Virus record (IMG/VR): IMGVR_UViG_2711768044_000007
Span: 1-35,105 of that record
DNA length: 35,105 nt
Reading direction: 5' to 3' (one strand)
Source: a virus
Lineage: Duplodnaviria > Heunggongvirae > Uroviricota > Caudoviricetes
Position 1 is the stretch's first letter. Each line of letters starts with the position of its first letter. This document shows, piece after piece, positions 4,915 to 8,866 of the stretch. A model generated the notes under the pieces. That model had not been told where the DNA came from and did not search any database. It worked only from the letters and a program-made list of their open reading frames with translations. The translations under genes and the position numbers were made by a program.

Positions 4915-5445
4915 ATGGCAAAACGCGTTACAAAATTAAAGGCCGCAGCCGAGGCGGCACCGCAGACCCGTGAAGAGGTCAGCCGCGATATCCGCCGCTT
5001 TGGGGATATGCAGCGTGAGGCACTGCGCCTGGAAACGGCGATGAATGACGAAGTGGCAGAAATCACCGCCCGTTATACGCCGCAGATTGAAAACCTTAAA
5101 AAAGAAATCAAAGTGCTTTTTAAGGGGATTCATGACTGGTGTAAAACCAACCGCAATGAGCTGACGAACGGCGGTGAAACCAAAACTGCCAATCTGACCA
5201 CCGGAACGGTGTCATGGCGGCTGGGAAAACCATCATGCAGCGTCAGCCGTGATGTGGAAGGCGTGATTGAAATGCTGCGCCGTATGGGGCTTGAGCGATT
5301 CATCCGCACGAAAGAGGAAGTGAATAAGCAAGCTGTCCTGGCAGAGCCGGATGCGGTGAAAGGGATTGCCGGTATTAAGGTGAATAAAGGTACTGAAAAT
5401 TTTGAAGTCGAGCCTTTTGAACAGGATGCCGGACTGAATAAATAA
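4915..5445 (+). CDS. gam: Gam-like host-nuclease inhibitor (DNA end-binding, Ku-like)
   Basis: 176 aa; motifs RLETAMNDEVAEIT, NELTNGGETKTANLTTGTVSWR, ERFIRTKEEVNKQAVLAEP and EVEPFEQDAGL match Mu Gam as recalled; AAGGAAAAA RBS. Confidence 0.85.
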   Translation: MAKRVTKLKAAAEAAPQTREEVSRDIRRFGDMQREALRLETAMNDEVAEITARYTPQIENLKKEIKVLFKGIHDWCKTNRNELTNGGETKTANLTTGTVSWRLGKPSCSVSRDVEGVIEMLRRMGLERFIRTKEEVNKQAVLAEPDAVKGIAGIKVNKGTENFEVEPFEQDAGLNK

Positions 5446-5542
5446 CACCGCATTAAATCTTTAAATATCACATCGTTTTAATTATGGCGCTCGCGTCAGG
5501 TGACTGCCTGCGCCTGAAAGCTGAAAATAAGGAATCGTAAAC

Positions 5543-6085
5543 ATGACATACTTTTATTTCAAATTAGACAGAACTCAGACAAATAAATATTTCACCAAAT
5601 ATCAACAGACTGTTTTACCGCTACGCAACAGTATTCTTCGGGCGTTACTGAAAAATACAGGCGCTGCCGGATTGCGCTTAAAGCCGTTCGCCATGGACGT
5701 AATCAGTGAGTTTTATTTTTCTGGTGCTCTGCCTGCGGGCTGGCGTAAGCGCGATGATGTGGCTTTTATCGGTGGCGGACAGTGCTTTATAGCCAGACCT
5801 GATGAGTCATGCCCTGAAGGACCGGCGATTGCCGCAATGATTGAAGCCGCTGAACGCGAGTTAAGGAAGCGTCCTGATTTCCTTGTCTGGCTCTGTGAAA
5901 AGCTGGGGGTAATGAGAATCCCCTCCATGTTTAACACGGACTCCTGGTGGACCCCGTCGCTCTCCCGTGATGCTCTGTGTGTGGTGTTTAAAGTAGGCGC
6001 TTATGGCAGGGAAATAAACGGGTGTATTCCTGAAGAATGCCAGGAAATTAAACATTCTGAATATGTGGCGCTTACGGAGGAATAA
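5543..6085 (+). CDS. hypothetical early accessory protein
   Basis: 180-aa ORF, AAGGAA RBS; no recognisable motif. Confidence 0.5.
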   Translation: MTYFYFKLDRTQTNKYFTKYQQTVLPLRNSILRALLKNTGAAGLRLKPFAMDVISEFYFSGALPAGWRKRDDVAFIGGGQCFIARPDESCPEGPAIAAMIEAAERELRKRPDFLVWLCEKLGVMRIPSMFNTDSWWTPSLSRDALCVVFKVGAYGREINGCIPEECQEIKHSEYVALTEE

Positions 6086-6088
6086 TTC

Positions 6089-6622
6089 ATGATTGATGCA
6101 AAAGTGCTTGAAGGGGTTAAAAACTGGCTGCGTTTTTCTGGCCGTCTGACCAGCCGTTCTCTGGCAGAAAAAATGAATATGCCGCTATCCTCCATGGTTT
6201 ATTTTCTGCGTGATGCGGTTGATGCAGGCGTGCTGACGGAATGTAACGGTTTTTATGATATTCCGCGTCCCCGCCCGGTGCAGCCGGTTCGTCGCAAATG
6301 CAGCCAGGAATGTGCGGCTGATGATGTTCAGTGGTGCAGCTTCAGAAAATCCCTGCCGTGGATTGAGGGGCATGATATTCCGTCGATGGCGTGGGAATTT
6401 GCTCAGGGCGTTCTGACCTGTGAAACCGTTTATGTGGTGGCTGAAGTTGATGAGCAGGCCATGAAAGAAGGCGTGCCCCAGTTTGTGATGGCGTATATCG
6501 ACATACGCCTTGGTGTCATCATCTGCGGTTTAAGCGGCTGGAATATCACCGCGCGTGTTCTGCGCTACCTGATTGTTGACCGGACGGCAGCACCTGCCGG
6601 GATATCTGCGGAGGTGGCGTAA
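6089..6622 (+). CDS. hypothetical early accessory protein (possible N-terminal winged-helix)
   Basis: 177-aa ORF, GGAGG RBS; N-terminal LTSRSLAEKMNMPLSSMVYFLRDAVDAGVL resembles a wHTH. Confidence 0.5.
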   Translation: MIDAKVLEGVKNWLRFSGRLTSRSLAEKMNMPLSSMVYFLRDAVDAGVLTECNGFYDIPRPRPVQPVRRKCSQECAADDVQWCSFRKSLPWIEGHDIPSMAWEFAQGVLTCETVYVVAEVDEQAMKEGVPQFVMAYIDIRLGVIICGLSGWNITARVLRYLIVDRTAAPAGISAEVA

Positions 6623-7137
6623 TGTTCTTTAAAACATCAAACCCTTCCGCGCTGGCTGCGTGGCAAAAATACCAGCAGGACTGCCAGACGGTAAAAGATG
6701 AGGCAAAACGCCTTGAGGCCGTGCTGAATGTTGCGTGCCGCCCGGTATTTGTATCCGGTATCAGTGGATTTTGTTTTAAGGGGCTGCGCTTTATGGATGA
6801 CAAATATCCTTTTCATCGCGACTTATGGCGAAAACCGACTGCGTCGAATGGCTGGAGCTGCACGCCGCGCACATCACGTATACCTAAAACCCTGCGTGTT
6901 GCCTCTGATGAACTGAACATTCTGTGGCGTGAATATTCGCCCGTCACGTATGCCAGAACCGATGCCCTGTTGTTCTGGTTGGGCATTGACTTCTCAGCAA
7001 TACTGTTTGGCCCCGTGAACTGGTTCTGCGTTGACGATGTGATTTACCTTCAGTGCGAAGATGATTCCGCAAAACGGAAAATGACCGAAATACTGTCTGA
7101 TGAGTTTTATGCTGCTGAAAAGCGAGTCAGGGGGTGA
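6622..7137 (+). CDS. hypothetical early accessory protein
   Basis: 171-aa ORF, start overlaps upstream stop (gtaATG), GGAGGTG RBS. Confidence 0.5.
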   Translation: MFFKTSNPSALAAWQKYQQDCQTVKDEAKRLEAVLNVACRPVFVSGISGFCFKGLRFMDDKYPFHRDLWRKPTASNGWSCTPRTSRIPKTLRVASDELNILWREYSPVTYARTDALLFWLGIDFSAILFGPVNWFCVDDVIYLQCEDDSAKRKMTEILSDEFYAAEKRVRG

Positions 7138-7140
7138 TGC

Positions 7141-7692
7141 ATGATGATATTACAACCCATGGGACGAAAAGGTCGGGCACCCGCTCATGTCCGCGCATGG
7201 ACACCTGAAGAAGATGCGCTACTGATTGCGCTTTATTCGTCCACCCCGGTTAAGGATATTGCTGTCAGAGTAAAAAGAAGTTACTGGGGAGTATATAACC
7301 GGATTATTTTATTACGCGGTATTTACCCGCAGTTGCTCAAATGCAAACGTCCCAGATTTAAACCTGATGAAGATAAATTTATCCGAAAAAATGCCAGAAC
7401 GATGACCGGTAAGCAAATAGGAGAATATCTGGGGCGAGACCGGGACTCTGTTCATAATCGGGCGCGATATATGGGCATAAGCATGAAAAAATACGGAGAA
7501 TTGCTGCCCTTCACCCGTATACCTGACGATGATGTTCGTCTTATTCGTGAATTACGGGATGCAGAGTCGCCACGACGCCTTACCTTCCGGGAAATAGGCG
7601 AGAAATTTGAATTATCCGAGGGCACGGTGAGTTTTATTTATCACCGTCGTCGGACTGCCGGGGACGCTGTATTACAGGAGTTAACGCCATGA
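7141..7692 (+). CDS. putative DNA-binding protein with three tandem Myb/SANT-like HTH repeats
   Basis: 183 aa with three internal repeats: WTPEEDALLIALYSS..VKDIAVRVKRSYWGVYNR / FKPDEDKFIRKNARTMTGKQIGEYLGRDRDSVHNRARY / IPDDDVRLIRELRDAE..LTFREIGEKFELSEGTVSFIYHRR. Confidence 0.5.
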   Translation: MMILQPMGRKGRAPAHVRAWTPEEDALLIALYSSTPVKDIAVRVKRSYWGVYNRIILLRGIYPQLLKCKRPRFKPDEDKFIRKNARTMTGKQIGEYLGRDRDSVHNRARYMGISMKKYGELLPFTRIPDDDVRLIRELRDAESPRRLTFREIGEKFELSEGTVSFIYHRRRTAGDAVLQELTP

Positions 7693-8021
7693 TAACGACC
7701 TTATTTGTTGAATCAGATGAACCCTTGGTATGTGCCGCCGGAATGCCGCTCTGTGGCGGAACACTGACCGGCGTTTATTTCGGGGATTTACGCGGTTATC
7801 CCTGGCATTCACTGAATGATGCTTTCCCGCCTGATATGGAGGCTGTTGTGCTGATTGTTCAGTATGACCACCGGCAGGAACTGCGCATCGGTCATATGGG
7901 GTATGAAGGCTTTTTTGTTGATGAAGAAACCGGAGCCTGCCTTGAAGATGAGGATGGACAGGTGACGCACTGGTGCCATATTTCGGCTTTACCGGAATTA
8001 CGGGAGATACACAATGGATGA
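7689..8021 (+). CDS. hypothetical small phage protein (DUF551-like?)
   Basis: 110-aa ORF, AGGAG RBS, start overlaps upstream stop; C-terminal THWCHISALPEL reminiscent of DUF551-type phage proteins (weak recall). Confidence 0.45.
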   Translation: MITTLFVESDEPLVCAAGMPLCGGTLTGVYFGDLRGYPWHSLNDAFPPDMEAVVLIVQYDHRQELRIGHMGYEGFFVDEETGACLEDEDGQVTHWCHISALPELREIHNG

Positions 8022-8325
8022 GCAAATAACGGACAATATTTCTCTGCTGTTCTGGTGTTTATATATCACATCGTTTTTCGGCGCATTTGTTATCACCCGG
8101 TGGTTATGCCGGAAAATTATCAGCCATTTTGATAAAAGATATCTGCTTGAGCTGGCTGCGGATGCGCTTATTCAGCAGGCCATTGTGTTATACAGCGGCG
8201 AGTTTTTCTGTCGAATAACAACCAGAGATGGCTGGCACATAATGATTATTCCGCCAACGCATCATATCCGGTGGAATGAGCCAGAAAAGGCTTTCCATGT
8301 CCGTAAAAAGGTAAATACGGTATGA
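8014..8325 (+). CDS. hypothetical small membrane protein
   Basis: 103 aa, one predicted TM helix (ISLLFWCLYITSFFGAFVI); GGGAG RBS. Confidence 0.45.
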   Translation: MDEQITDNISLLFWCLYITSFFGAFVITRWLCRKIISHFDKRYLLELAADALIQQAIVLYSGEFFCRITTRDGWHIMIIPPTHHIRWNEPEKAFHVRKKVNTV

Positions 8326-8834: not shown

Positions 8835-8866
8835 AAATCCCGCCACAGTGCGGGATTTCTTATTTT
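8835..8866 (+). terminator. intrinsic terminator-like hairpin after gemA
   Basis: AAATCCCGC-cacagt-GCGGGATTT (9-bp stem, 6-nt loop) followed by cttatttt. Confidence 0.6.

Follow-up and report, generated by a model that had tools for sequence, protein, structure and literature searches.

The window analysed here, positions 1 to 35,105 of IMG/VR virus record IMGVR_UViG_2711768044_000007, is a 100% match to a Mu-like prophage of the E. coli strains M1 and M3 (mouse). Its early region carries a gene for a small protein with three tandem helix-turn-helix (HTH) repeats, which is the subject of this report, and the coding sequence likewise matches at 100%. The open reading frame (ORF) begins with ATG at 7141, ends with TGA at 7690-7692 and specifies 183 amino acids (aa), as an earlier note on this DNA had it. 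RefSeq names the product 'DNA-binding protein', and other alleles go under 'AsnC family protein' or 'SANT/Myb domain-containing protein'.

The earlier note read the product as three tandem Myb/SANT-like HTH repeats of about 45 aa, each opening with a W/F/I-x-P-[ED]-[ED]-D motif and running into a basic segment. Three repeats, here called R1, R2 and R3, are indeed present. They open at W20 (followed by TPEED), F73 (followed by KPDED) and I126 (followed by PDDD), which gives a period of 53 aa; a length of ~42-45 aa fits the helical core only. The first two units match the proposed motif as a regular expression, but the third is off by one residue. Basic segments are found in R1 and R2 (isoelectric point, pI, ~10), but R3 is acidic (pI 5.8); the protein as a whole has a pI of 10.15.

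Taken from one sequence alone, the signal for repeats is marginal (Smith-Waterman with 2,000 shuffles, p=0.04, 0.19 and 0.01), and family profiles were needed for this reason. A family alignment of 41 sequences (an earlier version had 19) was cut into three blocks, which were compared with hhalign. R1 and R2 matched with P=5.4e-17 (probability 98.8%), R2 and R3 with P=5.8e-7 (92%), and R1 and R3 with P=1.2e-4 (55%). Compared as profiles, the tandem repeats of ~50-53 aa are thus homologous to one another, with significance at the family level. R1 and R2 are clearly duplicated Myb/SANT/GcrA-like units, and R3 is a divergent copy.

Structure prediction, a check the earlier note had proposed alongside repeat detection, gave the same picture. 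The AlphaFold2 model, built from the 19-sequence alignment, has three bundles of three helices and a C-terminal helix at 173-181, with a mean predicted local distance difference test (pLDDT) score of 83.8 and a predicted template modelling (pTM) score of 0.54. Residues 1-15 are predicted to be disordered (pLDDT <50). The three-helix HTH fold can be superposed on Myb/SANT repeats.

Table 1. Features of the triple-HTH gene and its surroundings in the window.
Feature	Position	Strand	Basis
Coding sequence, 183-aa triple-HTH protein	7141..7692	+	ORF list, sequence; WP_053264800.1
N-terminal basic arm, aa 1-19, pI 12, predicted disordered but conserved	7141..7197	+	pLDDT, conservation, charge
R1, aa 20-72, Myb/SANT/GcrA-like three-helix HTH and linker	7198..7356	+	helices 22-32, 37-43, 48-61
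R2, aa 73-125, Myb/GcrA-like three-helix HTH and linker	7357..7515	+	helices 75-84, 90-97, 101-111
R3, aa 126-183, divergent acidic HTH and C-terminal helix	7516..7689	+	helices 129-140, 149-156, 160-169; 173-181
Shine-Dalgarno-like AGGGGG, 6 nt 5' of ATG	7129..7134	+	sequence reading
ATGA stop/start overlap with downstream ORF 7689-8021	7689..7692	+	sequence reading
Strong terminator-like hairpin 3' of gemA homologue	8835..8858	+	terminator scan and gene order

Comparison with solved proteins places R1 and R2 beside Myb. Against PDB sequences the family profile finds c-Myb at E=1.5e-5, with R1/R2 in register with Myb R2/R3. A pooled profile of the R1 and R2 units finds Trichomonas Myb3 (TvMyb3) at 3e-6, the archaeal CRISPR-repeat binder Cbp2 (2lvs) at 7e-6, c-Myb at 2e-5 and B-Myb at 3e-5, the matches reaching up to 5e-5; GcrA, at E=0.27, is not significant. 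Among predicted viral structures in BFVD there are 23 structural neighbours at E<=1e-3, including phage endonucleases, several paralogues from the jumbo phage Goslar, one protein named 'D5 protein' and one named 'GcrA'.

The Myb/SANT-like label needs to be narrowed to R1 and R2. In Pfam, Myb family PF00249 gives the protein 17.5 bits (cutoff 24.4) and PF13921 gives it 16.3 (cutoff 22.9), both below the gathering threshold, but PF00249 does match at E<=0.01 in 17 of 19 homologues (best 6.3e-9). The tryptophan triad of Myb is absent: W20 alone is invariant, position 73 holds F or W, and the second and third c-Myb tryptophan positions are aliphatic. R3 is not Myb-like by sequence. The protein is thus Myb-like in fold and repeat organisation and is not a canonical Myb.

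R3 resembles sigma-70 region 4 or an AsnC-type HTH more than it does Myb, and this resemblance is weak and sub-threshold. It has a five-residue insertion between helices 1 and 2 and bears a family signature, DxDVxLIRxLRD...LTFxEIxEKF. Sigma70_r4, for which the earlier note had also suggested a Pfam search, is the best Pfam match of the protein, at 22.4 bits over residues 145-169 against a cutoff of 24.1; 13 of the 19 homologues match this model. Neither sigma-70 region 2 nor region 3 was found by Pfam, TIGR02937 reaches 18.7 bits against 42.9, and without region 2 the protein is not a sigma factor. HTH_AsnC-type scores 21 bits against a cutoff of 27. The model is all-helical and lacks the C-terminal alpha/beta ligand-binding (RAM) domain, which rules out the AsnC/Lrp family; the 'AsnC family' label that NCBI gives to most alleles is a misnomer. 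GcrA is ruled out as an identity in the same way, by the lack of its C-terminal sigma-70-interacting domain: the model consists of three HTH bundles and a terminal helix, and Pfam GcrA (PF07750) finds no match.

Neither Pfam nor the AlphaFold2 model contains a nuclease domain, and no NCBIfam family scores above its cutoff. The one PADLOC match was weak, to a homing endonuclease (HEase positions 3-148 of 266 on residues 18-166, E=0.0024), and the neighbouring ORFs matched nothing there. PHROG 323 ('transcriptional regulator, D5-like') was found at E=1e-55, with residues 2-182 on profile positions 80-256 of 319. By this profile match the triple-HTH protein belongs to PHROG 323, a widespread but little-studied phage family.

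The name-giver of PHROG 323 is gpD5 of phage T5 (T5.118, 255 aa). Sequence identity to the protein is low and the relationship is detectable by profiles only: residues 71-232 of gpD5 align with residues 17-171 of the window protein, spanning the three HTHs (hhalign 97.3%, P=1.7e-11) and scoring 75.9 where 100 shuffles reached at most 17.9. T5 D5 was reportedly purified in 1979 as a cooperative binder of double-stranded DNA (dsDNA). The T5 record annotates it as a DNA-binding protein that is required for replication and late transcription and involved in early shut-off. It is the only family member with a described function that we found. According to a preprint of July 2026 (doi 10.64898/2026.07.11.737809), the type IX retron-Kva2 is triggered by D5, D5 alone is mildly toxic, AlphaFold3 predicts binding of a D5 HTH to retron msdDNA in mimicry of the retron winged-helix protein, and an escaper phage carries D5 W74*. 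In our alignment, D5 W74 is the equivalent of W20.

A second relative is found in phage Mu itself. Mu gp9 (E8, Mup09, GP9_BPMU, 99 aa), an 'Uncharacterized protein gp9' in UniProt, is homologous to R2 and R3, with 33% identity over residues 66-166, and its first half is homologous to R2. A tblastn search of phage genomes and the window missed it; the homology was established by direct BLASTP (2e-10) and by Smith-Waterman alignment with shuffles (z=15.4). Mu gp9 also matches PHROG 323 at 5e-29.

These relatives bear on a further claim of the earlier note, that a triple-HTH protein in the semi-essential early region of a transposable phage is unusual. The analysis does not bear this out. The gene is present in 220 of 5,426 complete E. 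coli genomes (~4%), its 90%-identity cluster has 1,547 members, and a profile search of 1.84 billion representatives returned 12,538 matches at E<=1e-3. In about 40 Mu-like contigs of IMG/VR it occupies a fixed slot in the order gp11-gp12-X-...-GemA-Mor. P2-like prophages (with Cox, integrase and GpA) have a three-repeat protein at 40-50% identity in the early operon, upstream of gpA. The three-repeat architecture with its invariant residues is kept from 91% down to 37% identity in Mu-like and P2-like backgrounds. Together with Mu gp9 and T5 gpD5, this makes the protein an uncharacterized member of an already known, widespread type of phage HTH protein, not a one-off oddity.

Many of the profile matches are metagenomic proteins of 300-1,340 aa with 3-10 tandem units of the R1/R2 type (P0027, P0029, P0036, P0066 and others). 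Thousands of prokaryotic multi-repeat proteins are built from a unit of the form WTxEED...LGRS..SV..RA..LGL and are automatically named Lrp or CsgD family regulators. In sum, the metagenomic multi-repeat proteins exceed the Pfam Myb threshold, and some exceed that of GcrA.

In 21 P2-like contigs (L087-L106 and L108; for example L087 4683-6561 and L103 5021-6483) the homologue lies directly downstream of a D12-class Dam, an N6-adenine methyltransferase, sometimes with a DUF4406 gene between the two. These pairs stand upstream of replication gene A. In the P2-like loci the pairing persists although identity has fallen to 51-75% for Dam and to 40-52% for the HTH protein. A DUF4406 gene, whose function is not known to us, is found directly upstream of the homologue in three unrelated backgrounds: the P1-like phage D6 (L117 2866-3791), P2-like prophages (L087 5624-6561) and distant Mu-like elements (L107 and L109, ~5264-6546). 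Neither a Dam nor a DUF4406 partner was found in the window, and Mu, Citrobacter phage Shae_phiSM and Klebsiella phage LASTA have no Dam gene beside the homologue.

In cluster-J mycobacteriophages, the R1R2 module is found within an ORF, often annotated as HNH, that interrupts a C5-methylase gene. The C5-cytosine methylase gene of Mycobacterium phage Bombitas appears split over genes 109 and 110 (L112 2004-3887); gene 109 encodes the N-terminal half of the methylase and, after it, the Myb-like HTH repeats, and the C-terminal methylase motif is in gene 110. Related phages annotate the stretch as DNA methylase/methyltransferase or as HNH endonuclease. This looks like an insertion of the homing-endonuclease type. 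The 'DNA methylase' matches in mycobacteriophages were rejected as a methylase fusion partner, since the HTH ORF interrupts the C5-methylase gene.

The gene is real and under purifying selection. Pairwise ratios of nonsynonymous to synonymous substitution rates (dN/dS) are 0.14-0.26 in every domain, with no sign of positive selection. Among 34 non-redundant homologues, variability peaks in helix 3 (the 'recognition' helix) of every repeat (entropy 2.4-2.7 bits). Conservation is highest in helices 1-2 of R3 (1.0-1.1 bits), and the linker between R2 and R3 is conserved too. The R2 linker has K117, G119 and T125 as conserved residues, and the N-terminal arm has G8, G11, P14, A15, H16 and R18. Because the recognition helices vary while R3 helices 1-2 are conserved, the alignment suggests that DNA targets, contacted through R1 and R2 and possibly R3, differ between phages and that R3 holds a conserved partner or structural role.

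One group of alleles (L065-L083) is only 72% identical to the protein, though neighbouring genes are 90-97% identical. Nucleotide identity to the window is 90-99% in the upstream genes and the first 125 nt of the gene, and ~65-81% from about nt 7267 on. This pattern points to a mosaic (recombination) breakpoint inside the gene near nt 7267, just before the first recognition helix. Positive selection as the cause of this divergent group is ruled out by a dN/dS of ~0.24 together with the breakpoint.

The surroundings of the gene are those of a Mu-like early region. The window shares with phage Mu ner, A, B, gam, gp11, gp12, gemA, a Mor/C-type activator and lysozyme; comparison with Mu found no counterparts of gp13-15. 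The slot between gp12 and gemA is filled by the triple-HTH ORF and then by two small unknown ORFs, 7689-8021 and 8014-8325. Upstream lie the homologues of Mu gp11 (6089-6622, Pfam Gp11_C, 66% identity) and gp12 (6622-7137, 52% identity, PHROG 2314), both still without known function.

The stop codon of the gp12 homologue is at 7135-7137, and the stop of the triple-HTH gene overlaps the next start in an ATGA. Because of this overlap, the gene is probably translationally coupled to its neighbours within an early operon. The hairpin at 8835 is the first strong terminator-like structure on the + strand downstream, and the gene is therefore probably part of a long early transcript. A promoter and terminator scan between gam and this hairpin found no strong + strand terminator-like hairpin; the sole + strand match was a weak 5-bp stem within the coding sequence (7525-7540). 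Promoter-like matches over the same stretch showed no excess over shuffled sequence.

Near-identical terminator-like hairpins at 8835-8858 and 9480-9503, of the form AAATCCCGCCACAG[T/C]GCGGGATTT followed by a T-run, bracket ~645 bp between the gemA and mor/C homologues. Between them is a reverse-strand ORF of 113 aa (8865-9206) that has no match in Pfam, PHROG or PADLOC. The ~645-bp stretch has the look of a moron-type insertion, with a duplicated terminator at its borders. Beyond it, at 9546-9968, is the single Mor/C-family activator found in that part of the window, which is nearer to Mu C (40% identity) than to Mu Mor (28%). On the E. coli M1 chromosome, the prophage interrupts flgL (L001 923-1576, just outside the window); the interrupted gene is annotated as an incomplete pseudogene and adjoins the phage repressor. 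With flgL disrupted, the M1 lysogen is probably non-motile.

The reading we favour, and consider somewhat better supported than doubtful, is that this small basic protein with three tandem three-helix HTHs is a single-chain dsDNA binder that serves as an accessory early regulator. It would bind dsDNA as a monomer, placing up to three recognition helices in successive major grooves in the manner of c-Myb R2R3 or Cbp1/Cbp2, and the N-terminal arm would add further DNA contacts. Occupancy of phage or host DNA early in lytic growth would then modulate transcription, replication or both, in parallel with the annotated roles of T5 gpD5. DNA binding, its specificity and the regulatory role are what we infer for a protein whose ORF, repeats, predicted fold, homologies, synteny and purifying selection were shown above.

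Several results weigh against this reading. A whole-chain Foldseek search of the PDB found no match at E<=1e-3, a null that is expected because the domains are arranged as beads on a string, and at a pTM of 0.54 the predicted model leaves the relative arrangement of the domains unfixed. The R3 profile has no significant match to any solved DNA-binding domain among PDB sequences, and the acidic R3 may be no DNA binder at all. No candidate binding site was identified, the only search being the promoter and terminator scan. The literature yielded no experiment on either the protein or Mu gp9. T5 D5 is a remote relative, linked through hhalign only, and has a 70-aa N-terminal extension, so a transfer of function may fail. 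A wider reading of the literature on Myb-/GcrA-like phage proteins, Mu gp9, the semi-essential region and DUF4406 likewise turned up nothing on the gene. A paper on DRT4/ORF55 was dropped as a lead because it concerns an unrelated PriA-like single-stranded DNA binder.

It is unlikely that the protein is instead an RNA-polymerase-directed host-takeover factor, in which R3 mimics sigma-70 region 4 and binds the beta-flap or an activator surface. R1 and R2 would tether the complex to DNA, and host transcription would be redirected or inhibited (sigma appropriation). The Sigma70_r4 matches of the protein and its homologues fit such a role, but the protein's own score is sub-threshold, and AsnC-type, MarR and other HTH models score about equally on the same residues; the likeness to region 4 is therefore generic HTH similarity. 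That helices 1-2 of R3 are conserved and acidic is what contact with a conserved protein partner would predict, and T5 D5 is annotated as needed for the switch from early to late transcription; yet the R3 profile finds no significant sigma factor in the PDB. GcrA, a structural neighbour, is a sigma-70 cofactor, but neither its sigma-interacting domain nor its Pfam model is matched by the protein. GcrA also inspires a reading to which we give little credence, that of a methylation-sensitive reader. Its GcrA-like HTHs would distinguish N6-adenine-methylated from unmethylated DNA, with a phage-encoded Dam as partner in P2-like prophages and the host Dam in the Mu-like phage, and would set the timing of the early-to-late switch or tell apart replicated phage DNA and host DNA. 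If true, this would explain why the gene is locked beside Dam in P2-like prophages. The pairing in the 21 P2-like contigs, despite the divergence of both partners, speaks for it, as does phage C130_2, where two methyltransferase genes lie upstream in the same block and the nearer one ends ~1.4 kb before the homologue. However, the P2-like loci are interrelated and their conserved order is perhaps inherited synteny. No methylase stands beside the gene in the window, Mu, Shae_phiSM or LASTA, the sequence similarity to GcrA is not significant, and the methylase association in mycobacteriophages resembles a homing-endonuclease insertion more than a functional partnership.

An interaction with host defence in place of regulation is a long shot. 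The ligands of the protein would be structured nucleic acids of defence systems, such as retron multicopy single-stranded DNA (msDNA), and it would act either as an anti-defence decoy or sponge or as a component that is itself sensed. The triggering of retron-Kva2 by its remote homologue D5 is the only experimental link to defence, and with it come the predicted contact between HTH and msdDNA and the escaper mutation at the equivalent of W20. The gene also sits among variable, unannotated accessory ORFs, and one allele group has a mosaic breakpoint inside it. But a trigger is not an anti-defence factor, the primary role annotated for D5 lies in replication and transcription, PADLOC yields only the weak homing-endonuclease match, and dN/dS gives no sign of positive selection. 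That same weak match belongs to an explanation we consider very improbable, in which the protein is a nuclease-less relic of the DNA-binding module of a homing endonuclease and has no dedicated phage function. Weak HNH/homing-endonuclease matches (phrog_1891 and phrog_6156, and phrog_8446 for Mu gp9), the phage endonucleases among the BFVD neighbours and the R1R2 module in the HNH-annotated mycobacteriophage ORF are in line with such an origin. A relic would sit poorly with purifying selection across three domains, with a full-length three-repeat architecture whose invariant residues persist at 37% identity in both Mu-like and P2-like phages, and with the annotated requirement for D5 in T5 replication and late transcription.

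The analysis gives a structural and evolutionary identity to a common, uncharacterized prophage gene that has been mislabelled 'AsnC family', and it draws a new link across annotation between Mu gp9, an early gene of P2-like prophages and T5 gpD5. Should the protein be a sequence-specific regulator, the semi-essential region of Mu-like phages, which is poorly understood, would gain a new control element. Should retrons recognise it in the way they do D5, abortive infection mediated by retrons could be influenced by temperate prophages that have the gene. The Dam neighbourhood and the triggering of a retron by the homologue D5 are the leads that come out of this work. Among the DNA binders of phages, tandem Myb/homeodomain-like HTH proteins are common, and this general picture is unchanged.

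Set beside known systems, the protein shares with eukaryotic Myb R2R3/SANT proteins (PF00249, PF13921) the tandem tri-helical HTH of ~52 aa and the W-T-x-E-E-D repeat starts, and it likely shares their monomeric binding mode across several major grooves. It differs in that the base-contacting residues of c-Myb are not conserved and R3 is not Myb-like by sequence. GcrA of Caulobacter (PDB 5yiu, PF07750) has one HTH and a C-terminal sigma-70-interacting domain, the latter lacking here. Cbp1 and Cbp2 (PDB 2lvs) are archaeal chromosomal proteins that target CRISPR repeats; the protein reaches 17-25 bits against the Cbp NCBIfam cutoff of 140, and we found no evidence that links it to CRISPR. Mu gp9 is a fellow member of PHROG 323 in the early region of a transposable phage, but it has two repeats only and lies just upstream of gam, whereas the triple-HTH gene lies downstream of gp12; the window phage has no gp9-type gene in the Mu gp9 position. 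Compared with T5 gpD5, the protein lacks a ~70-aa N-terminal extension and an Ala/Lys-rich tail. T5 is virulent and requires D5, whereas the phage described here is temperate and transposable and has the gene in a variable accessory stretch; sensing by retron-Kva2 is reported for D5. The two proteins nonetheless have in common a core of three HTHs in the same order, encoded by an early phage gene, and a first repeat that opens with WTPE(E/Q).

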